From IMG/VR virus record IMGVR_UViG_3300038393_002515: a stretch of 64,000 bases of DNA. One strand, 5' to 3'. Position 1 is the first letter of the stretch, and each line of letters opens with the position of its first letter. Position numbers and translations under genes: made by a program. The notes under the pieces are model-generated. The model did not search any database. It saw nothing but the letters and a program-made list of their open reading frames with translations, and had not been told where the DNA came from. Positions 4,569 to 56,578 of this stretch are shown piece by piece. The DNA is from a virus.

Positions 4569-5005
4569 CCGTCCAGCCGCCCGCGCCGCGCCCCTGCGCC
4601 TCCTGCCCGTACCGCACCGACGTCCCGGCGGGCGTCTGGGCCGCCAGCGAGTACGCCAAGCTCGGCGCCTACGACGAGCCGACCCACCTGCAGCCCGCCG
4701 GTCTCTTCCTGTGCCACCAGACCGACCACGACGACGAGCGCGCCCGGGTGTGCTCGGGCTGGGCCGGATGCCACGACATGGACGAGAGCATGGCGCTGCG
4801 CGTCGCCGCCGTCTCCGGTGAGATCAGCGCCGAGGCCGTCCAGACGGTCCGCGACTACGTCTCGCCGGTGCCGCTGTTCGCCTCCGGCACCCAGGCCGCC
4901 GCCCACGGCATGAGCGGCATCGAGGAGCCCGGCGAGGACGCCCGGCGGGTGATTCGGAAGATCGAACGCACCCGAACCGACCTCACTACTGGCAAGGAGG
5001 GCTGA
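4565..5005 (+). CDS. Cys-rich hypothetical protein (146 aa)
   Basis: Starts at a GTGA overlap with the upstream stop. Contains CASCPYR ... LFLCHQ ... CSGWAGCH, a putative metal-binding pattern. Confidence 0.6.
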   Translation: MTVQPPAPRPCASCPYRTDVPAGVWAASEYAKLGAYDEPTHLQPAGLFLCHQTDHDDERARVCSGWAGCHDMDESMALRVAAVSGEISAEAVQTVRDYVSPVPLFASGTQAAAHGMSGIEEPGEDARRVIRKIERTRTDLTTGKEG

Positions 5006-5227: not shown

Positions 5228-5276
5228 CGAACCCCACCCTAACGCAGCTATAGATGCGCTAGGGTGGGGTTCGTTG
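5228..5276. promoter_or_regulatory. P1: 19-bp inverted repeat (18/19) whose right arm is the conserved promoter-like element, with -10-like TAGGGT at 5260-5265
   Basis: CGAACCCCACCCTAACGCA (5228-5246) pairs with TGCGCTAGGGTGGGGTTCG (5255-5273). The left arm read on the minus strand is identical to the P2 core TGCGTTAGGGTGGGGTTCG. Confidence 0.55.
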
Positions 5277-5346
5277 GCAGCGAGACCGGGTGTCCGACCC
5301 GTCCTCTACGCTGCCCTCCACCACCCCGCCTAGGAGAACAAGACAC

Positions 5347-6225
5347 ATGGGACTCCCGAAGGTCGACGAGGCCACCACCATCGCCCTGGAAGCCATCCGC
5401 GACGCCGCCCCCGCCCTGCTCACCGTGACCGAGGTCTCCAAGAAGGTCGCCTCGGCCGCCGACGTCTCCGTCGGCACCGCCCGCAGCCGGGTGCGCGCCG
5501 CCTTCGAGGCGGGCGGGCTCCTCGAACTCAAGCCCTGGTCGCGGAAGTTCTTCATCGAGCTGCCCGGCGCGGAGGCCGCCGGTCTCGGCCCGTTCTACAT
5601 CGCCCGCGAGTGGACGGGGACCGGCCGCGAACACCGCCACGTGATCACCACCGACGACAGCGCGATGCGCCCCAGCTCCTACGGCCCCGGCAACACCACG
5701 TACGTGGCCGACCCCGAGCAGATCCGCGAGTACGTCCAGCGGCTCACCGACGAGAAGAAGGCCAAGGAGGACGCCGAGGCCGAGGCTTGGAGGAACGACA
5801 GGAAGGCGCAGGTCAAGGAGATCGCCCGTCGCTTCCCCGGACTGCGCAAGGCGCTGCGCATGCTCGAACTTCTCGGCACCTTCGCCAACCCGACCGACGC
5901 GCACGGCTCCATGCTGACCGCCAGGGTGTACCTGGACACCTCCCGCCACCAGGCTCAGGACGCGCCGGTCTCCGAGCGGAACTCGAACATGGTGATCCAG
6001 GTGGAGGGTGACGAGAACGTGGGCATCCTGCAGACGATCCTGAGCGCCGGGCTCTCCTCCCTCCTCGCGGAACAGCCCGTCACCCACTGCAAGCACTGCT
6101 CGGGCCGCATCCTGTACGCCCAGGCCAGGTTCGGCACCGGCTGGTGGCACGTCGACACCACCAACGGCTCCTGCGGCGAGGACACCGACACCAAGGCCGA
6201 GCCCGCCGAGACCGAGGAGAACTGA
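5347..6225 (+). CDS. hypothetical protein (292 aa) with a C-terminal CxxC...WWH...C zinc-ribbon-like motif
   Basis: ATG 5347 lies 8 nt after AGGAGA. The C-terminus reads HCKHCSGRILYAQARFGTGWWHVDTTNGSC. GTG 5290 is an alternative start. Confidence 0.65.
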   Translation: MGLPKVDEATTIALEAIRDAAPALLTVTEVSKKVASAADVSVGTARSRVRAAFEAGGLLELKPWSRKFFIELPGAEAAGLGPFYIAREWTGTGREHRHVITTDDSAMRPSSYGPGNTTYVADPEQIREYVQRLTDEKKAKEDAEAEAWRNDRKAQVKEIARRFPGLRKALRMLELLGTFANPTDAHGSMLTARVYLDTSRHQAQDAPVSERNSNMVIQVEGDENVGILQTILSAGLSSLLAEQPVTHCKHCSGRILYAQARFGTGWWHVDTTNGSCGEDTDTKAEPAETEEN

Positions 6226-7771: not shown

Positions 7772-7808
7772 ACACGCATCTATGTGTGCGTTAGGGTGGG
7801 GTTCGTTC
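7769..7808 (+). promoter_or_regulatory. P2: sigma-70/HrdB-like promoter, -35 TAGACA (7769-7774), 17-nt spacer, -10 TAGGGT (7792-7797)
   Basis: Geometry read directly. The 33-nt GCATCTATGTGTGCGTTAGGGTGGGGTTCGTTC is conserved with P1, P3 and P4. Confidence 0.6.
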
Positions 7809-11892: not shown

Positions 11893-11932
11893 TAGACATG
11901 CATCTATGGATACGTTAGGGTGAGATTCACCG
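11893..11932 (+). promoter_or_regulatory. P3: -35 TAGACA (11893-11898), 17-nt spacer, -10 TAGGGT (11916-11921)
   Basis: Same architecture and sequence family as P2 (CGTAGACAyGCATCTATG...CGTTAGGGTG). Confidence 0.6.
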
Positions 11933-11952
11933 CCCAGGAGAAGGAGAGGCAC

Positions 11953-12381
11953 ATGCCCGCCGACGCACTGACCATGGACACTCCCCACTGGAGCCGAGAC
12001 GACGTCACCACGGTCCTCGTCGAAAAGCTCGGCTTCACGCCCGACCCCAACGCCCCCGGCGTCAACTTCCTCCGGGGCAAGAACCTCCGGCTGAGCATCG
12101 TGGACGGCTACGGCAAGGTCCAGCTGGCGCACGACAACCCGCTGTGGGCCGCGACCTTCACCTCGTCCGTGCCCGCGAGCATCATCCTCAAGGCGGTCCG
12201 CCAGGCCGCCACCGAGGACGACTACGTCTACTGCCGACACTGCGCCCTGCGGATCGCGAAGGTCCCGCAAGACAGGGTGAAGAGTGGGTCGAGCGAGGTC
12301 CACTGGTGGCACCCCGACACCGGCAAGGGTGCCTGCTCCGTCGGCGGCACCGTGGCCGAGCCCGCACCCGCAGAGGACTGA
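11953..12381 (+). CDS. hypothetical protein (142 aa) with a C-terminal CxxC...WWH...C motif
   Basis: ATG follows GGAGAAGGAGAGG. YCRHCALRIAKVPQDRVKSGSSEVHWWHPDTGKGAC parallels the C-terminus of the 5347-6225 product. Confidence 0.65.
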   Translation: MPADALTMDTPHWSRDDVTTVLVEKLGFTPDPNAPGVNFLRGKNLRLSIVDGYGKVQLAHDNPLWAATFTSSVPASIILKAVRQAATEDDYVYCRHCALRIAKVPQDRVKSGSSEVHWWHPDTGKGACSVGGTVAEPAPAED

Positions 12382-13578: not shown

Positions 13579-13611
13579 GCATCCATAGATGCGTTAGGGT
13601 GAGAGTTGTTG
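13579..13611 (+). promoter_or_regulatory. P4: conserved element GCATCCATAGATGCGTTAGGGTGAGAGTTGTTG, -10-like TAGGGT at 13595-13600
   Basis: Contains the near-palindrome GCATCCATAGATGC. The -35 position (ACCCCT) is poor. Confidence 0.5.
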
Positions 13612-32321: not shown

Positions 32322-32352
32322 GCCCTTGCTGTCGCTCCACCGGCGGCAGACC

Positions 32353-32363
32353 CCAAGGGCTGA
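32353..32363 (+). promoter_or_regulatory. Late motif variant CCAAGGGCTGA
   Basis: 10/11 match, 28 nt upstream of GTG 32392. Confidence 0.4.
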
Positions 32364-32391
32364 AGGAAACAGGCCGTTGAGGGAGGCGCCG

Positions 32392-35220
32392 GTGGGCGGC
32401 AAGTTCGAGCGCGGCGAGCGCCTGGAGCACCAGACGCTGGGCGTGCAGCGGCTCGCGGTGCGCTCCGAGGACTACTGGGAGTACAAGCCCGAGCAGCGCG
32501 TCCGGACGATCGACGGCGTCACCGGCGTTGTCAAGCACGTCGAGGACGGACCCTTCCCCGGTGCTGAGGAGTATCACGTCGTCCTGGACCGGGGCATGGG
32601 TGGCGGCCAGTACACCGCCTCGCAGCTCAGCCCGGCCCCCATCACCACCGAGGCCATGGAGCAGACGGCGGCCGCCGACTACCCCGAGCTCTCCCAGATC
32701 CTCGTCGAGCGCCCGGACCCGGCCCGCCAGTTCGTCACGGCGGGCAAGAACCCCTTCGCCGATGACGACAACGACGATGACTCCTCTGACGAGGGCGACG
32801 ACTCTCATGACGACTCGCAAGACGACCCACATGACGAGGACGACGACTCCGACGAGGACGACTCGGACGACGACTCCGACGACAAGGACGCTGACGGCGA
32901 CGACGCGCCTCCGTGGGCCAAGAAGGCGTCCTCCCTCTTCTCCGACCTGGTTGTGACGGCTGCCACCGATGTCGACTTCCGCTTCCACATCACGGCCGCC
33001 TGGCGCGACGTGGTGGCCAAGGCCAAGCGGATCCGTTCCGAGGGCCGCCTGCGCGTCACTCTCGCCTCCGACGGCTACGTGTTCGGCGAGGTCAAGGGTG
33101 ACCACCACGTGTACGAGACCGGCCTGCAGCGCCTGCCTGGCCGGGTGGCCGCGCACTCCTGGTCCTGCGGCTGCAAGTGGGGCGCCTACCACTGGGGCGC
33201 CGACGACGACTTCTCCCGGTTCGCCGGGCGCATGTGCTCCCACGCCCTGGCCCTGCAGTACGAGGCCCAGTCGAGGGGGATGTTCGGCCGCGACATTCAC
33301 GTGGACGAGCACAAGCCCACCTGGGTGCCCCGCAAGGTCGTCGTCCGCTACGACATCGACGCCGACACCAACCGGCTCGCGCCGTCGACCGCCCGCAAGC
33401 TCGCCTCGTGGGACGCCCCTGAACCCTCCATGTGGGACATGCATTACGGCGACGACCACGACCACGAAGCCGAGCGCCAGGCCAAGTCGGACGAGTGGGA
33501 CAGCATTCACGAGGGACTGGGGGACATCCATCGAGGCGTGAACGTCCACCTGCGCCCCGAGGATCACGCGATCGTCCACGACGAGTCCCGGCCGCTACAC
33601 GAGCGCGCCCAGCACCTGCTCAAGTCGCTCCCGCACAGCGACCTGGGCCGTGGCCGCGAGGGCCTGGGACGACACTGGACCGACAACGAGGGCGTGGCTG
33701 AGTCCTTCGGTGACATGGACGACCGCCCGAACCGGCACGGCACGCACCCGACCTCGGTCATCTTCCACGCCGAGAAGCCCGACCGGCACGCGATCGACGA
33801 GGACCCGGACCAGTCGGACGGGATGATCTACGGCTACCACGACCACGGCGAGAGCGAGATCCCGCTCCACCCTGGGGCCGGGGTGAACCTCAAGGGCATC
33901 TCCTGGAAGAACATGGACACGCCCGACGAGGACTTTCGGACCTTCAAGGGCGACGGCCTCTTCGATCACTACTGGGAGCACCAGCGTCACGACTTCCCGG
34001 GCGGCCAGCACGCCTACGCGTCGCTGAGCAAGGCCCCGTTGTCCACCGTCGCGCGCGCTGCCGTGGCGGCCGGTGAGGACAGTGCCGAGGTCGAGTTGGC
34101 CATGCGCACGGTGGGTATTCGACGGACGGCCAGCAGCTGGGACGAGTACCACGAGGACGAAAACGGCCGCCGGTACACCCTCGACGAGGACGGCGAGCCG
34201 AACTACACCTGCCACAACAAGTACTGCGACGAGGGCGGCGAGCACGGCGGCGACGGCGAGACCGCACAGCGGCACGACGACGTCTACACCGACTGGGACA
34301 CCGTTCACCCGCACCTCGGTCCGCACCTCCACCGGGGCATGGCCGTCAGCCTGCCGGACGACGTGCACGGCGTCGTCCATGACGACGGCAGGCCGGTAGA
34401 AGAGCGCGCGAGCGCGCTGGCCGACCACCTTCGCGAAGAGGGGCTCGGTACGCACTGGACCCCGAACCACGACCAGGCCAGGCACTACTCGGGCATCACC
34501 GACGGCCGGGACCGCGACACACACGTCATCCTGCACGCCCACACCCCGGCCAAGGAGCACATCGAGACCGACCCCGACGAGCTGGCCCGCCAGGACGTCA
34601 TCGCCATGGGCGACCACGACGACGCCGAGGTGCCTCTGCAGTCCGGCGCCCCGGTGAAACTGAAGGGCATTTCCTGGAGGCACCGTACCGACAAAAAGTG
34701 GACCCGGCACGACTTCCCTGGCGGCCTGCAGCACGAGGCCAACGCCAACGCGCCGTTCGGAGAGCCGTCGGGGACGTCGTACGTGCTGCCCAAGGCGCCG
34801 GGTGCGACGGCGCCGAAGAAGCCGTGGGAGAACCCGGCCTCCGCCGGGCCGCTGGCGGGCGCGGACCCGGCGGGCTGGAACCGGCAGCTGCCGCTGCAGT
34901 CGTACGCGGGCATGGACACCGCGCTGTTCGAGCCCGGCGGTACGGAGGCGACGCTGCACGACGAGCCGGAGGGGGCGCTGCCGTCCACGGACGGTGCGGT
35001 GCCGACGGACGAGGCGTCGGATCTGACGCCGTCGATGACGGCGGGTCTGAAGCGGCAGGCGCTGAAGGACTTCACCTTGGCTGAGCAGCAGGCGCTGATC
35101 AACGAGGGCGAGAACGTGCGGGCGGCGAACCTCGACCGCCTGGACATCAAGGGGACCCACTACGCCGACCTGGAGAGCGTCCTGGCGGCACAGGAGGAGG
35201 ACACCACATGGCTGGCCTGA
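32392..35220 (+). CDS. 942-aa multidomain protein: poly-acidic tract, SWIM zinc finger, two tandem ~135-aa repeat modules
   Basis: GTG 32392 follows GAGGGAGG. Has the tract DDDNDDDSSDEGDDSHDDSQDDPHDEDDDSDEDDSDDDSDDKDADGDD and a SWIM-like CGCKWGAYHW...CSHALAL. Modules carry HRG...LG.HWT.N...E(I/V)PL..GA.V.LKGISW twice. Confidence 0.7.
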   Translation: MGGKFERGERLEHQTLGVQRLAVRSEDYWEYKPEQRVRTIDGVTGVVKHVEDGPFPGAEEYHVVLDRGMGGGQYTASQLSPAPITTEAMEQTAAADYPELSQILVERPDPARQFVTAGKNPFADDDNDDDSSDEGDDSHDDSQDDPHDEDDDSDEDDSDDDSDDKDADGDDAPPWAKKASSLFSDLVVTAATDVDFRFHITAAWRDVVAKAKRIRSEGRLRVTLASDGYVFGEVKGDHHVYETGLQRLPGRVAAHSWSCGCKWGAYHWGADDDFSRFAGRMCSHALALQYEAQSRGMFGRDIHVDEHKPTWVPRKVVVRYDIDADTNRLAPSTARKLASWDAPEPSMWDMHYGDDHDHEAERQAKSDEWDSIHEGLGDIHRGVNVHLRPEDHAIVHDESRPLHERAQHLLKSLPHSDLGRGREGLGRHWTDNEGVAESFGDMDDRPNRHGTHPTSVIFHAEKPDRHAIDEDPDQSDGMIYGYHDHGESEIPLHPGAGVNLKGISWKNMDTPDEDFRTFKGDGLFDHYWEHQRHDFPGGQHAYASLSKAPLSTVARAAVAAGEDSAEVELAMRTVGIRRTASSWDEYHEDENGRRYTLDEDGEPNYTCHNKYCDEGGEHGGDGETAQRHDDVYTDWDTVHPHLGPHLHRGMAVSLPDDVHGVVHDDGRPVEERASALADHLREEGLGTHWTPNHDQARHYSGITDGRDRDTHVILHAHTPAKEHIETDPDELARQDVIAMGDHDDAEVPLQSGAPVKLKGISWRHRTDKKWTRHDFPGGLQHEANANAPFGEPSGTSYVLPKAPGATAPKKPWENPASAGPLAGADPAGWNRQLPLQSYAGMDTALFEPGGTEATLHDEPEGALPSTDGAVPTDEASDLTPSMTAGLKRQALKDFTLAEQQALINEGENVRAANLDRLDIKGTHYADLESVLAAQEEDTTWLA

Positions 35221-47724: not shown

Positions 47725-48384
47725 ATGTCCGGTACGACACCACGGCTGGGGCTGAAGACGTGGGATCAGTCCGATCCCTTCCTCCGCCAGGACTTCAACG
47801 ACAACAACGGGCGCCTGGACGCCTATCCCGGTACCTACATCTGCACGTCTGGTTCCCGGCCCGCCTGGGGTGGCGCGCAGTCGGGCATGCGTATCTTCGA
47901 GACGGACACGCGGCGTGAGCTGATGTGGAACGGCACGGCGTGGCGGGAGCCTTTGGTCACGCCGCCGGTGTGGACGGGGTATATCCAGCCCCAGGCCACG
48001 ATGGGCAAGGACACGCACGTCTACTACAAGCTGGCGACGTTTCAGGTCAACCGGCCGGGTGCGCTTCTGGTGCACCTGGAGGTCGAGGTCACGGTCCAGT
48101 CTCTGTATACGGCGAACATGTCGGCGCGGCCGCAGGTGGATGGTGGTGACTGTCAGATCGGCAGTACGGCGTCGTACATGCGGGTGGCGCAGACGAACAC
48201 TTCTGGCAGTGGTTGGCAGAGGCACTGGATGATGGGTGCGGTCGGCCTGCGTTCGGTTGGTGTGGGCTCGCACAACTTCGGTCTCCACTTCTACACGACG
48301 CCGACGTCGACCACGTCTTCGGTGTCGGTGATGCTGTCGTCGGTGCGTGGCTACGCAATGCTCGTCAACTCGCAGGACACCTGA
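47725..48384 (+). CDS. fibre / minor-tail-like protein (219 aa)
   Basis: The N-terminus TPRLGLKTWDQSDPFLRQDFNDNNGRLD resembles N-termini of actinophage minor tail or fibre proteins. The remainder is beta-rich. Confidence 0.5.
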   Translation: MSGTTPRLGLKTWDQSDPFLRQDFNDNNGRLDAYPGTYICTSGSRPAWGGAQSGMRIFETDTRRELMWNGTAWREPLVTPPVWTGYIQPQATMGKDTHVYYKLATFQVNRPGALLVHLEVEVTVQSLYTANMSARPQVDGGDCQIGSTASYMRVAQTNTSGSGWQRHWMMGAVGLRSVGVGSHNFGLHFYTTPTSTTSSVSVMLSSVRGYAMLVNSQDT

Positions 48385-51877: not shown

Positions 51878-52549
51878 GTGCTTGTTTCGTTGGCCGCGTG
51901 GTGGACGACAGATCCCGATGAGTACCGCGAGTACGAGAACATGCACGACCCGGACTACCGGCTGCGCGACCCCAAGGAGACGCCGGTAGCCCGGCGCAAC
52001 CGGTTCATCAAGCACGTCTCCGACGCCCATGGCGTGGATGAGAAGGCGGCCACCAACGCCCTCAAGCACGTCGTCACGCGCGGCCTCGGCGGCTTCGACG
52101 ACCCGGAGAGCTACGGCTTCGCCAGCTCGGCGAACCAGATGACGCACTACTCCCACAGCACTCGCCAGAAGCTGATGGACCCGAAGACCTGGGCGGGCAA
52201 GAAGGAGGAGAGCATCCCCCTTCACCAGGAGATTCACGCCAGCCAGAACTTCATCCGGCCGGACTCCGTGGCGCACAACCTCTTCCACCCTGGCAAGCGC
52301 CAGGCATATGACCACGAGGCCGTTGGCGACCCGGACTACGACCCGAGCTGGGACGAGGACTCACACCGCGAAGAGGACGAAGGGTCGGAGTCCACGCCCG
52401 AGGAGCGCGCTCTGCATGGCACCGCGCGGTTCATGCGGCGCAACAGCGGTCGCCTGGAGGTCGTGGACGGGCATCACCGGGTCGCTGCCGACATGCTGCT
52501 CGGCAAGCCCCACACCAAGGGTGTGATCATCCACGAGCGGGACCTGTAA
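51878..52549 (+). CDS. ParB/Srx-fold (ParB-like nuclease domain) protein (223 aa)
   Basis: The C-terminal LEVVDGHHRVAADMLLG is the characteristic DGxHR motif of ParB N-terminal/Srx domains. The start is uncertain. Confidence 0.55.
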   Translation: MLVSLAAWWTTDPDEYREYENMHDPDYRLRDPKETPVARRNRFIKHVSDAHGVDEKAATNALKHVVTRGLGGFDDPESYGFASSANQMTHYSHSTRQKLMDPKTWAGKKEESIPLHQEIHASQNFIRPDSVAHNLFHPGKRQAYDHEAVGDPDYDPSWDEDSHREEDEGSESTPEERALHGTARFMRRNSGRLEVVDGHHRVAADMLLGKPHTKGVIIHERDL

Positions 52550-53274
52550 TGCTGGTCGAGGTCCCGGAGGTCCACCTGGTCACCCATCCCGACCGCATGA
52601 TCATGGTCGAGAAGGGGCTGTCGCCGAAGCGCGCCCGTGCCGCCGCGCTGGAGGCCGTACGACAGGCCCGGCGCCGGATGCCGAAGCTCACCGGCGCCGC
52701 CGCGCGCGGGCTGCAGCCGCTGTACGGCAAGGGGTACTTCGGGCTCTCCTGGGCCACCGAGGTCGTCTGGTACCAGGACCACGGCACCAAGCCGTTCACC
52801 ATGCGCTCGCTGGCCGGGCGGGTCATCCCGATGTGGATCGACGACCCGACCGGCCAGGAGCGGCGCGACAACCCCAAGGCCAAGACGCGCACCACGGAGT
52901 CCGGGAAGGTGCAGGTGCTGATCTTCCGGCGCGCGGCCCGCATCGGGGAGCGGAAGAAGGTCTACCGCAAGGACCCGAAGACGGGTCTGAAGGTGCTGGT
53001 CTCCGACACCCCGGCCCACTACCCGGGCGCGCCGGGCCGCATCGGCTGGCGTGAGGCCAAGCAGCCCTGGACCAGGCCGGGAAAGCGGCCGGGCGCCATC
53101 CACCCGGGCAACATCGGCGTCTGGTGGCGCCACCCGGGCCTGAAGCCCCGGAGTTTTTTGAACACGTCCATGACCCTCGCGGCGCAGAAGAACGGCCTGG
53201 TGGCCGAGCGGGTCTACGTCGCCGACCGGTCCTGGAGAAACAGCGTCCGCCTGCACGGCGAGGAGTTCCGGTAG
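52549..53274 (+). CDS. virion protein (241 aa), HK97 gp10-like tail-completion candidate
   Basis: GLSWATEVVWYQDHGTKPFTM resembles the gp10-family motif (y..y.E.GT...P). Weak call. Confidence 0.35.
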   Translation: MLVEVPEVHLVTHPDRMIMVEKGLSPKRARAAALEAVRQARRRMPKLTGAAARGLQPLYGKGYFGLSWATEVVWYQDHGTKPFTMRSLAGRVIPMWIDDPTGQERRDNPKAKTRTTESGKVQVLIFRRAARIGERKKVYRKDPKTGLKVLVSDTPAHYPGAPGRIGWREAKQPWTRPGKRPGAIHPGNIGVWWRHPGLKPRSFLNTSMTLAAQKNGLVAERVYVADRSWRNSVRLHGEEFR

Positions 53275-53327: not shown

Positions 53328-54083
53328 ATGACCTTGGTGTGGTCGCAGATCATTCGGCTGAGCCAGTGGGGCGACGACTGGGCGCCGAAGGACAGCGACG
53401 AGGACGTCCACCCGGGCGAGATCGAGAGTCACCGGGGCAGCTGGGAGCTGAACCAGCATCATGTCAACCGGCTGGCCGACTCCATCCGGCAGCACGGCTA
53501 CAGCCCGGAGCGGCACGGCGTGCTGGGGTGGAACTTCCACCAGGGCGGCGAGAACGTCTACAACCACGCCTCGGGCACCGAGACCGACCCCAACGACCAC
53601 CTGCACCACGAGCATCTGCTGCAGGCGCTCAAGGACGTCGGGCACGGCCCGGTACGGGTGCACATCCACGATCAAGACTCGGACGAGCGCGGCAACTCGC
53701 CTCGGTACTACCACGGCACCACGGTCGAGGATCTCAAAGAGGTCAAGCCCAACCACAGCACGCGGGGCTCCTTCGGGAACAACGGAGCGATCCACGAGCC
53801 GGGCTACGCCTACGCCACCAGCCGCGAGAACGCTGAGAGCTACGCCGAGAGCAAGGCCGAAATCCATGGCGGTCGCCCTCTCGTCTACCGCGTCTCGCCG
53901 CTGGGTCCGGTCGAGAAGGACCCTTCGCACGACGCGCAGGGGCGCAGCAGGGCTAACTACGAATCGGACGTCCGGTCCAAGCACGGCTTCCAGGTCCTGG
54001 ACCACGTCTGGTCCGGCGAGCACCCGGACGGCGACGAGGCATGGCACGACGATGAGGATGATTACGACGGCGGGTGGCACTGA
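53328..54083 (+). CDS. two-domain protein (251 aa): N-terminal ParB-like segment plus C-terminal Arr-like (rifampin ADP-ribosyltransferase family) domain
   Basis: PRYYHGTTVEDL...PGYAYATSRENAESYAE...GGRPLVYRVSPLGPVEKDPS aligns by eye to the Arr pattern FYHGT...IYF(S/T)...A.WGAELA...GRGYIYIVEPTGPFEDDPN, covering the H, Y and D catalytic positions. Confidence 0.6.
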   Translation: MTLVWSQIIRLSQWGDDWAPKDSDEDVHPGEIESHRGSWELNQHHVNRLADSIRQHGYSPERHGVLGWNFHQGGENVYNHASGTETDPNDHLHHEHLLQALKDVGHGPVRVHIHDQDSDERGNSPRYYHGTTVEDLKEVKPNHSTRGSFGNNGAIHEPGYAYATSRENAESYAESKAEIHGGRPLVYRVSPLGPVEKDPSHDAQGRSRANYESDVRSKHGFQVLDHVWSGEHPDGDEAWHDDEDDYDGGWH

Positions 54084-54718
54084 TGTACATCACCCGGGTC
54101 AAGGCCCTCGCCATCGAGGCGCTGCAGGCGGTCTTCGACAGCCAGTATCCCGTGACGGAGTTCCGGGGTCTGCACTGCTCGCTGGAGTACCCGGTCGAGA
54201 AGTCGTCGTTCCCCGAGGTCTGGGTGCGCTACAACGACACCGGCCCGCTGCGGCGGGCGGGCGTCTCACACGTCGAGGACACCGATCCGGGTGACGGTGG
54301 CCGGGTGCCGCCGTACACGCGTTTCCGGTTCGAGGGCTCCTGGGAGTTCGTTGTCGTCGCGCTGTCGAGCGTGGAGCGGGACCGGGTCTACGACGAGCTG
54401 GTCGCGACGATCGCCTTCTCCGGCTTCGATCCGTTGCGCAGCCGGTTCCGGTCGTACCTGGAGAACAACGACCTGATCGACCTGACAATCCGGACGGACG
54501 AGATCGAGTCGACCGGCGAGTCGGCTGAGCCGGGCACGCCGTGGGGGACGGACGAGGTCGTCTACGAGCGGACGTTGGCCATCGACCTGATCGGGGACTT
54601 CACGCCGGACCCGATGCAGGCCGGAGTGATCGTGCCTCTGTCGAAGATCGTGGTCACGCCGACCGCCGACCCCACCCTCGACGACCTCAGCGACAGCGGC
54701 TTCGACTCCTGGCACTGA
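54083..54718 (+). CDS. virion or tail-proximal protein (211 aa)
   Basis: ATGA overlap at 54083. Lies just upstream of the sheath gene. Function inferred from position only. Confidence 0.55.
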   Translation: MYITRVKALAIEALQAVFDSQYPVTEFRGLHCSLEYPVEKSSFPEVWVRYNDTGPLRRAGVSHVEDTDPGDGGRVPPYTRFRFEGSWEFVVVALSSVERDRVYDELVATIAFSGFDPLRSRFRSYLENNDLIDLTIRTDEIESTGESAEPGTPWGTDEVVYERTLAIDLIGDFTPDPMQAGVIVPLSKIVVTPTADPTLDDLSDSGFDSWH

Positions 54719-54720
54719 GA

Positions 54721-54966
54721 TCAGGACCCTAGCGATCCGCCTTCGTTCTCCCAGACCTCCACCATCGTCCTCCAGGAGGCTTCCTTGCGCCTTCGCTTCG
54801 AGCGGTTCAGAGTGTGCCACCAGCCACATACGCACTGGTAGGGCTTGTGGACGTCGCCGTCCCTCTCGTGTAGCTCCTGGCACTTCAGGAGAGCCAAGTC
54901 CTTGCTGAACTTCCGCTTCTTCGTCGGGCATGGAACGTACCGCCTGCGCCCACCTCTCCTCGCCAT
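54721..54966 (-). CDS. small basic protein (81 aa) with a CxCGWWH motif and a WENEGG tail, on the opposite strand inside the tail module
   Basis: Reads MARRGGRRRYVPCPTKKRKF...KPYQCVCGWWHTLNRSKRRRKE...WENEGGSLGS. Codon third positions are mostly G/C. Flanked by a 19-nt direct repeat. Confidence 0.55.
   Translation of the reverse strand: MARRGGRRRYVPCPTKKRKFSKDLALLKCQELHERDGDVHKPYQCVCGWWHTLNRSKRRRKEASWRTMVEVWENEGGSLGS
54722..54740. repeat. Direct repeat copy 1: CAGGACCCTAGCGATCCGC
   Basis: 18/19 identical to 54969-54987. Overlaps the stop codon and last codons of the minus-strand ORF. Confidence 0.75.
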
Positions 54967-54968
54967 GC

Positions 54969-54987
54969 CAGGACTCTAGCGATCCGC
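54969..54987. repeat. Direct repeat copy 2: CAGGACTCTAGCGATCCGC
   Basis: Lies immediately upstream (minus sense) of the start at 54966. On the minus strand it reads GCGGATCGCTAGAGTCCTG, with TAGAGT ending 6 nt before the ATG. This is a leaderless-type promoter geometry. Confidence 0.75.
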
Positions 54988-55006
54988 TCCTGTCCACCGC
55001 CGCCCC

Positions 55007-55031
55007 GTCAGCCCAAGGGGTGACAGCTGAC
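55007..55031 (+). promoter_or_regulatory. Late motif copy: 6-bp hairpin GTCAGC/GCTGAC enclosing CCAAGGGGTGA (55013-55023)
   Basis: Read directly, 28 nt upstream of ATG 55052. Confidence 0.55.
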
Positions 55032-55051
55032 CGACGCGACTGGTGGGTGGC

Positions 55052-56578
55052 ATGCCCGACATCTCTTCTGCGACGTACACGCCGCCCGGCGTGTACGTCA
55101 GCGACGAATCGACTCCCACGGTCACCCCGCGCGGTGTGTCGACCACGACCGTCACGGTGATCGGCCCGGCCCTGGGCTACCAGACGACCAGCGAGGTCGT
55201 CACCGTCAACTCCGCCTCGGCGACCGCGCTGTCGCAGCGCGGCGTGTACACCACGGCCGTCGTGGGCCCGCCTGCCATCGCGGCGCCCGTGGTCACGACC
55301 CTGTCGGGCACGGCCATGGTCTACAACACCGACTACACCTTCGTGGTGACCGCCGGTTCCGGCGGTGCGGCGACGGCGGTCACCTCGATCAAGCGGCTGT
55401 CGGCCAGCCAGAGTGACCTGACCCAGCCGTCGCCGAACGGTCTGAAGGACGGCGACCAGGTCCGGGTGACGTACGCGTTCACCAACGCGACGTACTACGA
55501 GCCGACCGAGTTCGAGGACTACGACCAGATCGTGGCCACGTACGGGCAGGCGATGGTGACGACCGCGCCGACGAGCCCGACCGCGTCGCAGGTCGCCTCG
55601 GCGCTGACGCTGGCGGCGAAGATCGCCCTGGAGAACGGCGCGGCCAGCGTCCTGTGCGTCGCCACCAACCCGTCGGCCGGGGACTACAGGGCGCAGCTGC
55701 AGGCGGCGTACAGCAAGCTGGAGGCGGACTACCGGGCGCAGATCCTGGTGCCGCTGTTCGTGGACGGTGCGTACAACGCGCACACGCCGACGAACGTGGC
55801 GAACCTGCTGGCCGACGTCAAGAATCACTGCGAGACGGCGGCGGCCGACGGCTACGGGCGCCTGGCGTTCACCGGCCTGGCCACGAACTACGACAACACG
55901 GTCGGTCACGACCAGCTGGCGCTGGCGCAGGCCAGCAAGCGGCTGGTGCTGTGTTACCCGAACCGGCTGTTGGCCTTCAACTCGGCTGTGAACGCCTCTA
56001 CGGAGGTCGACGGCTTCTACCTGGCCGCCGCGATGGCCGGGCGTCTGGCGCGGAACGCGGTCGCGCGTGGGCTGACGAACCAGTCGCTGACGTCGTTCAC
56101 CGGTCTGCCCGCGACGATCGCGCAGGCCATGACCCGGACCTTCCGTAACAACCTGTCGAAGTCCGGTGTGAACGTCGCGGAGATCAACCAGAACGGCCAG
56201 CTGGTCGCCCGGCACGGCGTCTCGACGAACATGTCGTCGATCCTGACGCAGGAGATCTCGCTGACCCGGATCGGCGACGTCCTGCTGCAGATGATCCAGG
56301 TCGGCATGTCCAACGCCGGGCTGATCGGTGAGCCGATCACGGCCGAGACAACGATCAACGTGAAGTCGGCGCTGATCGGCCTGCTGGAGCAGGCGGTCTC
56401 CGACTCGATCATCGTCTCCTACGCGAACGCGCAGGTGCGGCAGCAGTCGGCGGACCCCTCGGTGATCGAGGGGACCTTCAGCTACAAGCCCCCGATCCCG
56501 ATGAACTACGTCGTCGTGAAGTTCGCCGTCGACCTGACAACCGGCGACACGACCACGGAGACGGACCAGAACGCCTGA
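55052..56578 (+). CDS. contractile tail sheath protein (508 aa)
   Basis: The N-terminus ATYTPPGVYVSDES is the typical sheath PGVY motif. Size fits and it is followed by tube and chaperone genes. GTG 55043 is an alternative start. Confidence 0.8.
   Translation: MPDISSATYTPPGVYVSDESTPTVTPRGVSTTTVTVIGPALGYQTTSEVVTVNSASATALSQRGVYTTAVVGPPAIAAPVVTTLSGTAMVYNTDYTFVVTAGSGGAATAVTSIKRLSASQSDLTQPSPNGLKDGDQVRVTYAFTNATYYEPTEFEDYDQIVATYGQAMVTTAPTSPTASQVASALTLAAKIALENGAASVLCVATNPSAGDYRAQLQAAYSKLEADYRAQILVPLFVDGAYNAHTPTNVANLLADVKNHCETAAADGYGRLAFTGLATNYDNTVGHDQLALAQASKRLVLCYPNRLLAFNSAVNASTEVDGFYLAAAMAGRLARNAVARGLTNQSLTSFTGLPATIAQAMTRTFRNNLSKSGVNVAEINQNGQLVARHGVSTNMSSILTQEISLTRIGDVLLQMIQVGMSNAGLIGEPITAETTINVKSALIGLLEQAVSDSIIVSYANAQVRQQSADPSVIEGTFSYKPPIPMNYVVVKFAVDLTTGDTTTETDQNA

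Follow-up and report, generated by a model that had tools for sequence, protein, structure and literature searches.

A single-gene insert with redundant ends at a recurrent insertion hot spot of a Streptomyces phage-plasmid: a probable minimal moron

Why should a tail operon that otherwise reads in one direction hold a single small reverse-strand gene enclosed by a direct repeat? The question is raised by positions 54721–54987 of IMG/VR virus record IMGVR_UViG_3300038393_002515, analyzed here as a stretch of 64,000 nucleotides (nt) that we refer to as the window. A preliminary description had noted an open reading frame (ORF) for a basic protein of 81 amino acids (aa), hereafter ORF81, between two 19-nt repeats. 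It had proposed either a small mobile or duplicated promoter cassette, i.e., a moron with target-site-like repeats, or an antisense-embedded regulator with two copies of its own promoter. We are highly confident that the locus is an insertion which carries a real, foreign and selected gene at a recurrent hot spot, and that both repeats are part of the insert. The reading we favor as probable is that the 269-bp cassette at 54719–54987 represents a minimal, horizontally acquired moron with terminal redundancy, lodged between the stop codon of a 211-aa gene and the leader of a predicted tail sheath gene. The locus comprises the following features:

54083..54718, plus strand: gene for a 211-aa protein; its stop codon bounds the insertion hot spot on the left
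54719..54987, minus strand: insertion of 269 bp (GAT, 19-mer, 228 bp, 19-mer), delimited by junction comparison with relatives
54721..54966, minus strand: ORF81, with a predicted CCCH zinc site and a C-terminal WENEGG, from the ORF listing and the family alignment
54722..54740, minus strand: downstream 19-mer, which codes for (G)GSLGS and includes the stop codon up to its second base
54726..54731, minus strand: TAGGGT in the downstream 19-mer, a possible second −10 hexamer, antisense toward the 3′ end of 54083–54718
54969..54987, minus strand: upstream (promoter-side) 19-mer, separated by 2 nt from the ATG and directly adjacent to the sheath leader at its opposite end
54973..54978, minus strand: TAGAGT, a candidate promoter that resembles a −10 hexamer and occupies −12 to −7 relative to the ATG
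54988..55051, plus strand: sheath-gene leader of 64 nt (CTGTCC box ... CCAAGGGGTGACAGCTGACCGACGCGACTGGTGGGTGGC), right edge of the hot spot
55052..56578, plus strand: predicted tail sheath gene, 508 aa, from a weak Pfam Phage_sheath_1 match and tblastn

The sequence features reported in the preliminary description were borne out. The two repeats (CAGGACCCTAGCGATCCGC at 54722–54740 and CAGGACTCTAGCGATCCGC at 54969–54987) are identical at 18 of 19 positions and lie 247 bp apart, and ORF81, running on the minus strand from 54966 to 54721, is the sole ORF that they enclose. All other genes predicted between 39503 and 61838, using a gene sketch based on the GC content at third codon positions (GC3), lie on the plus strand. 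One further minus-strand candidate (47835–48014) looks spurious and falls inside a plus-strand gene that, as read from the sequence, apparently starts at 47726. The ORF81 protein is basic (isoelectric point, pI, of 10.2; 20 lysine or arginine residues) and carries the motifs C..C...C.CGWWH and WENEGGSLGS. Its first 62 residues are basic (pI 10.5), and its tail is acidic (pI 4.3). In minus-strand orientation, the right 19-mer reads GCGGATCGCTAGAGTCCTGGCATG, with 6 nt from the end of TAGAGT to the ATG, and the left 19-mer reads GCGGATCGCTAGGGTCCTGA and supplies the final six codons and part of the stop codon.

Spurious long ORFs are abundant in high-GC genomes, and the arrangement might thus be a chance repeat around such an ORF in a long intergenic spacer. 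However, when the window was simulated 30 times with a second-order Markov model, an 18/19 direct repeat within 400 nt never arose, versus six such repeats in the real window, the remaining ones of which occupy positions unconnected with the ORF81 locus. Elsewhere in the window, a search for the 19-mer at up to three mismatches returned a single match, at 12249 with three mismatches (shuffle expectation 0.04). Homologues of ORF81 also exist. The only close one, P0002, is 68% identical and was found as one cluster in a word-indexed search; the ratio of nonsynonymous to synonymous substitution rates (dN/dS) between the two is 0.19 (77 codons). Furthermore, ORF81 keeps all residues that are invariant in its family, and the AlphaFold model has a confident core. 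Simulations, family conservation and dN/dS refute a chance origin, to which we assign practically no probability. ORF81 is a real gene, under purifying selection and compositionally foreign to the phage: its GC content is 0.618 and its GC3 0.82 (0.61 and 0.80 in P0002), with GC3 values of 0.90–0.96 in four neighboring genes, including 0.93 in the 211-aa gene. GC contents of 100-nt windows are 0.61–0.64 inside the insert (54750–54900) and 0.62–0.75 in the flanks.

To which replicon, then, was this gene added? Megablast against 50,697 phage records gave no match to the locus, and 17 relatives were found in IMG/VR and the GTDB genome set, with 211-aa homologues at 71–90% and sheath proteins at 76–96% identity. 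Relatives that span a whole replicon are contigs of 151–157 kb from Streptomyces isolates. pRLB1-9.1 from Streptomyces sp. RLB1-9 has been deposited as a circular plasmid of 154,158 bp with 69.0% GC; the GC content of the window is 69%. The window derives from a Streptomyces myovirus-like phage-plasmid of ~155 kb. In pRLB1-9.1 and other relatives, the fetched locus encodes the sheath and neighboring tail-module genes despite deposition as a plasmid or single contig, and the relatives appear to form an unrecognized phage-plasmid group. The longest contig with ORF81 measures 309,833 bp, about twice the unit length, and may be an assembled dimer. Regarding the two flanking genes, the 508-aa product of 55052–56578 has a weak Pfam match to Phage_sheath_1 and 27–32% identity (tblastn) to annotated tail sheaths of Mycobacterium, Gordonia, and Rhodococcus myoviruses, which identifies it as a predicted tail sheath protein. 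The 211-aa product directly upstream of it matches phrog_2748 (function unknown) at 7e-26 and is probably a virion or tail component.

The preliminary description had proposed to compare the junction in related phages. We took the sequence from the stop codon of the 211-aa gene to the sheath ATG from every relative, and this comparison revealed an insertion. In three lineages, L009 (pRLB1-9.1), L010, and L015, the site is empty and holds only a leader of 64–65 nt, reading TGA, TGCTGTCC...CCCAAGGGGTGACAGCTGACCGACGCGACTGGTGGGTGGC, ATG, and the flanks of the window align to it on both sides. The sheath leader of the window (54988–55051) consists of the same 64 nt as in the empty-site relatives. 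The 269 bp at 54719–54987 are extra because they separate the neighbor's stop codon from the leader that is shared with the empty sites. An arrangement common to all relatives, with no empty-site variants, had been named as the outcome that would speak against an insertion; we found the opposite, as all 17 relatives lack the unit and none of them encodes ORF81 (tblastn). The 19-mer is likewise absent, at up to four mismatches, from the 307 kb of fetched loci, which comprise the relatives and the contigs of family members. Contigs encoding an identical 211-aa protein carry the insert in both places shown (one confirmed base for base, the rest collapsed as similar), and none of those shown is an insert-free variant. 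Across 13 aligned relatives, whose flanking proteins are 71–96% identical, the CTGTCC box and the last ~45 nt of the leader are almost invariant, as might be expected of a late promoter or of a signal for translation or processing. A conserved hairpin in the leader, suspected by eye, had no covariation support in RNAalifold.

Is this junction used by ORF81 only? Every other length variant among the relatives is an insert at the same junction point, and at least seven other insert states occur. The L005 group carries a non-coding piece of 88 nt, and L017, L048, and L049 share an element of ~50–60 nt (ACTACTAG...TAGTAGTTCG). The same element is accompanied in L013/L047 by a reverse-strand ORF that resembles, by eye, an HD-domain protein. 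Pieces containing hairpins are found in L011, L014, and L016, and an AT-richer piece of 492 nt with a small plus-strand ORF and a terminator-like hairpin in L050. No flanking direct repeat was found around the junction inserts of the relatives.

Some of these inserts merit a closer description. The reverse ORF of L013 (4637–5303; the same in L047, Streptomyces sp. MH60) adjoins the AT-rich ~50–60-nt element (ACTACTAGTTGACCTACTAATTTCTCCCAGATTAGTAGTTCG) and is a second reverse-strand moron at the hot spot. The small plus-strand ORF in the lower-GC insert of L050 (3637–4128; Streptomyces sp. NPDC021080) is Cys-rich and is followed by a strong GC hairpin (GAGAAGCCCCCCGG...CCGGGGGGCTTCTC). The inserts of L005 (4634–4721) and L011 (~4685–4710) have CGATCGGCATCGCACCGTTG(G/A)GA in common, and that of L005 resembles a long imperfect hairpin, possibly a small structured RNA or what is left of an earlier insert.

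With the insertion delimited, the nature of its ends can be addressed. The first option of the preliminary description, a transposon-like mobile unit that generates a 19-bp target-site duplication, is in line with a compact unit of one gene that direct repeats enclose and that relatives lack. In such a case, the empty site would hold one copy of the repeat, yet the empty sites run from TGA directly into TGCTGTCC and contain no copy of the 19-mer. The right 19-mer stops exactly where the conserved leader starts, and the left one begins 3 nt (GAT) past the neighbor's stop codon; with these boundaries, both copies lie within the insert, which is at odds with target-site-like repeats. In addition, the repeat extends into the conserved coding part of the gene, the insert ends lack terminal inverted repeats, and neither a transposase nor a nuclease domain was detected with Pfam, PHROG, or NCBIfam. 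No further copies were found in the window, phages, plasmids, or IMG/VR, i.e., distant blastn gave no DNA match to the 269-bp insert in phages or plasmids, and an exact scan of IMG/VR for the 19-mer was negative. Six 19-mer matches in Joint Genome Institute (JGI) metagenomes had unrelated flanks with GC contents of 0.40–0.69, and their number is about that expected by chance for a roughly guessed collection size. A transposon-like origin is extremely unlikely in our judgment.

Other known kinds of small mobile elements fit no better. The mycobacteriophage elements MPME1 and MPME2, reportedly described by Sampson et al. in 2009, are said to measure ~440 bp, to have 11-bp terminal inverted repeats and a 123-aa ORF, and to occur in many copies across phages. 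The ORF81 insert resembles them in being a sub-kilobase, single-ORF insert that is absent from relatives; however, it is 269 bp long, has direct instead of inverted repeats, encodes an unrelated 81-aa product, and has no copies in other phages. No homing-endonuclease domain (HNH, GIY-YIG, LAGLIDADG, or related) was found in Pfam, PHROG, or NCBIfam, and matches to nuclease folds were insignificant (E above 0.9). The 269-bp insert shows the defining features of neither a transposon, an MPME, a homing endonuclease gene, nor an integron cassette.

What, then, are the 19-mers? Read on the minus strand, the insert consists of 19-mer, GC, ATG...GAA G, 19-mer, and ATC, and thus has the form of a 247-bp unit to which the initial 19 nt of a following unit and 3 filler nt have been added. 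The downstream 19-mer codes for the second G of WENEGG, for SLGS, and for the TG of the stop codon; the last base of this TGA falls at the junction, beyond the repeat. As the copies differ in TCCTGG (upstream) versus TCCTGA (downstream), a nucleotide of the junction completes the stop codon, and the protein has lost its native C-terminus. DNA homology between ORF81 and P0002 extends from codon ~7 through GAAGGCGG, continues weakly to CGCTnG inside the downstream copy, and is then lost. Since all family members share the GG, at least the first 4–5 nt of the downstream 19-mer, and possibly ~12 nt, belong to the native gene. We propose that the 19-mers represent a terminal redundancy of the inserted fragment and not a duplicated target. 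Slightly more than one unit may have been captured from a circular or tandem template. Alternatively, GCGG microhomology at the end of the truncated gene may have seeded a short templated copy of the promoter region at the 3′ junction. The stop codon of ORF81 would have been created at that junction. We give slightly less than even chances to an origin of the redundancy by such more-than-unit-length or templated-junction capture, as opposed to a resident site.

A resident site is assumed if a mini-circle of promoter and gene entered by a single crossover with a 19-mer that was present at the junction in the immediate ancestor, as for the promoter-early stem-loop (PeSL) cassettes. PeSL cassettes and mini-circles have been described in T4-type phages (PMC2839356, Arbiol et al. 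2010; PMC4122927, Comeau et al. 2014). Like these, ORF81 is a small ORF between direct repeats of promoter-bearing sequence, with the structure expected from a circular intermediate of promoter plus gene. The geometry is exactly what a single crossover yields, and circles between repeated promoter cassettes are documented for T4-type phages (PMC2839356). The 19-mer is also loosely similar to the −10 region of the putative early promoter of the phage itself (CGCTAGGGT) and to parts of the L011 and L005 inserts, and ERF-type recombinases are encoded near family members elsewhere. On the other hand, no 19-mer is found at the site in relatives or in the 307 kb of fetched loci, three lineages have a site devoid of any such sequence, only two copies occur in the 64-kb window, and 19 nt is very short for homologous recombination. 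PeSL elements are promoter-plus-terminator motifs at many sites of hyperplastic regions, unlike the 19-mer with its two copies in 64 kb. Moreover, ORF81 has no stem-loop, one of its repeat copies is coding, and it resides in a structural operon, not in an early hyperplastic region. We consider a crossover of this kind unlikely and retain terminal redundancy of the captured fragment as the preferred origin. In the contig that encodes P0002 (L001), a perfect 15-nt direct repeat, GAGGGGGAGCAGTGA (890–904 and 1129–1143), surrounds an 80-aa gene directly downstream of P0002 and carries a ribosome-binding site with an overlapping stop/start. The window is therefore not alone in having repeats of junction sequence around a small gene.

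How could a reverse-strand gene in this position be expressed? The actinobacterial −10 element is TAnnnT (Streptomyces consensus TAGRRT) and ends ~7 nt before the transcription start, and leaderless mRNAs whose first nucleotide is the A of the start codon are common in Streptomyces and Mycobacterium. For ORF81, no start other than the ATG at 54966 is possible: an in-frame TAG lies 9 nt upstream, and the conserved N-terminus follows this ATG directly. ORF81 has no Shine–Dalgarno sequence; P0002 has GGAGG and a TTG start. TAnnnT occurs at a rate of 0.0005 per position and is found at −12 to −7 in only one of the 1256 ATG triplets of the window, that of ORF81. TAGRRT is similarly rare (12 occurrences in 128 kb, counting both strands), and five of these lie within a recurrent motif, GCATCTATAGATGCGTTAGGGTG, described below. 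A leaderless ORF81 transcript is plausible because the geometry of TAGAGT is unique among the 1256 ATG triplets. TAGAGT in the upstream 19-mer would act as a −10-only promoter from which a minus-strand leaderless mRNA starts at the A of the ATG. Expression of ORF81 would thereby be independent of the late plus-strand tail operon, e.g., in the plasmid-prophage state or in early infection. From the position of the hexamer, we regard independent leaderless transcription from TAGAGT as fairly likely.

The second option of the preliminary description goes further, in that both copies would be functional promoters or operators: the upstream one would drive ORF81, and the downstream one (TAGGGT) an antisense RNA against the 3′ end of the 211-aa tail gene. 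Such an RNA would damp late genes in the carrier state. Both copies fit the rare TAGRRT, with TAGGGT being the form present in the conserved early promoter-like motif of the phage, and the lone mismatch between the copies preserves TAnnnT in both. Silencing is conceivable in relatives that are kept as plasmids, such as pRLB1-9.1. However, the downstream copy is coding, so that the ORF accounts for its conservation, and with a single phage lineage carrying the insert there is no independent comparison of conservation. The predicted RNA structure is not outstanding either: folding energy is unusual on neither strand (z = 1.26 and −0.36), and Rfam gave no match. We find it improbable that both copies act in this way; transcription from the upstream copy is the part that we retain.

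What does the gene encode? An exhaustive HMMER search followed by a profile search revealed a family of ~37 clusters, all annotated as 'hypothetical' and, where the source is named, all from Streptomyces; the window protein matches the family profile with an E-value of 1e-22. C13, Y43, C45, C47, W50, and H51 are invariant in the 37-sequence alignment, and the invariant Cys and His residues form a predicted CCCH zinc site with C13, C45, C47, and H51 as ligands. The family has the N-terminal segment CPTxKxK/RxF(NEAWA) and, in most members, a linker of about 45 residues rich in R and K, which is missing from the short forms ORF81 and P0002. The C-terminus follows the pattern (L)P(L)RVWE[DN][DE]GGA, with 2–21 further residues past GGA in members other than ORF81. 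In ORF81, WENEGG is followed by S, where A is otherwise universal in the family. P0002 heads an operon of small genes on a contig with 62% GC and typical Streptomyces genes (DUF397, HTH_31). The members examined elsewhere lie among genes for ERF, DNA methylase, Endonuclease VII, resolvase, or integrase, together with many small ORFs. These neighborhoods belong to the early or accessory parts of prophages or plasmids and not to structural operons. The proteins constitute an undescribed family of Streptomyces mobile elements, with a CCCH zinc core, a basic region, and a WE[DN][DE]GG tail, that is so far confined to these elements and soil metagenomes.

Searches of reference collections added little. 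The Pfam scan of ORF81 gave only a sub-threshold match to zf_CCCH_5, PHROGs and NCBIfam gave nothing usable, and tblastn with ORF81 and family sequence P0016 found no significant match in phages or PLSDB plasmids. Sequence matches in the PDB to the RCC1 repeats of UVR8 (CGWRHT) are attributed to chance, and a profile search of the PDB was empty. Literature string searches for WENEGG, WEDDGG, and CGWWH returned nothing relevant. AlphaFold, applied to the 37-sequence alignment, predicted a helix (22–36), a hairpin (40–44/50–54), and a second helix (55–74), with a mean predicted local distance difference test (pLDDT) score of 75 and values of 88–91 over residues ~21–50. Foldseek found nothing below E = 1 for this model in the PDB. 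In BFVD, it aligned zinc-ribbon proteins with a zinc core of helix, beta-hairpin, and helix over 45–52 residues (root-mean-square deviation 1.8–3.0 Å; 27–29% identity). These include the 'HTH DNA binding domain protein' (helix-turn-helix; A0A514DI77) of Microbacterium phage Cressida and proteins of Pseudomonas phage Persinger (A0A7D7J6W6) and Mycobacterium phage Phabba (A0A249XU21). One of the matches has an HTH domain fused to it. The E-values are only 0.02–0.23, the matched proteins are uncharacterized, and none is reported with a WE[DN][DE]GG tail. The product of ORF81 would be a small zinc-binding protein, strongly basic and so probably nucleic-acid-binding. Its WENEGG tail, acidic and aromatic, probably serves for docking onto a partner protein. 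We tentatively suggest that ORF81 might bind nucleic acid via the basic zinc domain and a partner via the WENEGG tail, and might act in the plasmid-carrier or early state.

How well does the term moron fit? Morons, following the definition of Hendrix and Juhala, are extra transcription units between conserved genes of lambdoid and other tailed phages. Absence from 17 relatives, three clean empty sites, foreign composition, a real gene, and the −10-like TAGAGT at leaderless geometry are in favor of the moron or insertion reading that had been put forward. In agreement with morons, ORF81 is one extra gene of atypical base composition between genes that are adjacent in relatives, it has a promoter-like element, as far as the sequence tells, on the opposite strand within a late structural operon, and its site is repeatedly used by different inserts. 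It departs from them in that no terminator was found by ORF81, leaving the classic three-part moron incomplete, and in that the cassette is exceptionally small, with flanks of 21 nt (5′) and 2 nt (3′), has a 19-nt direct repeat overlapping the gene end, and would be translated from a leaderless mRNA.

Several results weigh against a minimal moron with terminal redundancy and its own promoter. At the promoter, a −35 box at standard spacing is missing, with TGGACA just 12 nt upstream, a scan for the sigma-70 consensus found nothing at ORF81, and a terminator-like site is absent on either strand between 53800 and 55400. At the ends of the insert, the downstream 19-mer agrees with the native gene past GCGG at 5 of 8 positions (p ~0.04, own estimate). 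A donor with a tandem or circular arrangement was not found, and tandem paralogues are absent from the window and from all family loci. The loose similarity of the 19-mer to the L011 and L005 inserts (GAT, CAGGAC, and GCGATCxGC, as read from the sequences) would allow for a former resident copy; this likeness is too weak to build on. Finally, the function proposed for ORF81 is deduced throughout; the protein has no match in Pfam, PHROG, NCBIfam, or PDB. A bolder interpretation combines several of the alternatives: the 247-bp unit would be a self-contained mini-cassette of −10-only promoter and leaderless gene, traveling as a small circle or concatemer from one Streptomyces mobile element to another. 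Its duplicated promoter would fire an antisense RNA that damps the late tail operon in the plasmid state, and its product would be the first of a new class of zinc-binding regulators, with WE[DN][DE]GG as the peptide that docks on a host factor. If true, this would be an actinobacterial counterpart of the T4-type PeSL mini-circles; we deem it very unlikely.

The moron reading places ORF81 within ordinary accessory-gene insertion in phages, albeit with an unusual terminal repeat, and current ideas of phage mosaicism are not overturned. The junction between the 211-aa gene and the sheath is a precise and reused landing pad for accessory DNA in ~155-kb Streptomyces phage-plasmids. It is a natural place to seek genes for lysogeny or host interaction, and its tolerance of varied inserts makes it a candidate site for cargo. 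Terminal redundancy together with a stop codon made at the junction would provide a clean, datable case of a gene that was captured, trimmed, and given a leaderless promoter. For annotation, the gain is a small family that has no entry in Pfam, PHROGs, NCBIfam, or PDB.

The preliminary description had further linked ORF81 to two gene products, at 5347 and 11953, through a shared GWWH. This applies in part: the product of 5290–6225 contains GTGWWH, and that of 11920–12381 contains HWWH, not GWWH. In both, WWH stands in a CxHC...WWH...C layout that differs from ORF81, and hhalign aligned only 7–8 residues around the common WWH, with probabilities of 10.6% (5290–6225) and 1.5% (11920–12381). By these alignments, the likeness does not reflect homology to ORF81. 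Both products end in a similar CxHC...(~20 aa)...WWHxD...C, and each gene lies directly downstream of a copy of the GCATCTATAGATGCGTTAGGGTG motif; they may be paralogous regulators. GCATCTATAGATGCGTTAGGGTG is a conserved 23-nt motif with five occurrences versus zero expected (5235–5266 on both strands, 7776–7798, 11900–11922, and 13579–13601). It comprises a palindrome directly upstream of a TAGGGT −10-like hexamer and lies mostly in gaps between predicted early small genes. The motif is probably an early promoter of the phage with a repressor operator. Between 127 and 3214, long imperfect repeat families (D8, D10, D11, and D17) end in ...CCGCCAGC...CCCCAGGAGCGCCC just before successive small-gene starts and look like upstream or boundary sequences common to the small ORFs of an array.

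Upstream of the hot spot, the 251-aa product of 53328–54083 shows sub-threshold similarity to rifampin ADP-ribosyltransferase (Arr-ms, E = 2.5e-4) and to ART-PolyVal. Its gene is absent from the L005 group, L009/pRLB1-9.1, L010, L016, and L017, the closest relatives sampled, and is 48–62% identical where found; it appears to be a further variable accessory gene within the structural operon. In pRLB1-9.1, thyX is found nearby in place of this gene. The homologue of the 241-aa gene of the window (52549–53274) is split in L017 (1274–3019) into two pieces ~1 kb apart, which suggests an intron, an intein, or the insertion of a mobile element. Finally, the 964-aa ORF at 32326–35220 contains tandem-like codon repeats rich in Asp, Ser, and Glu (GACGACTCCGACGAC...) at 32748–32911.

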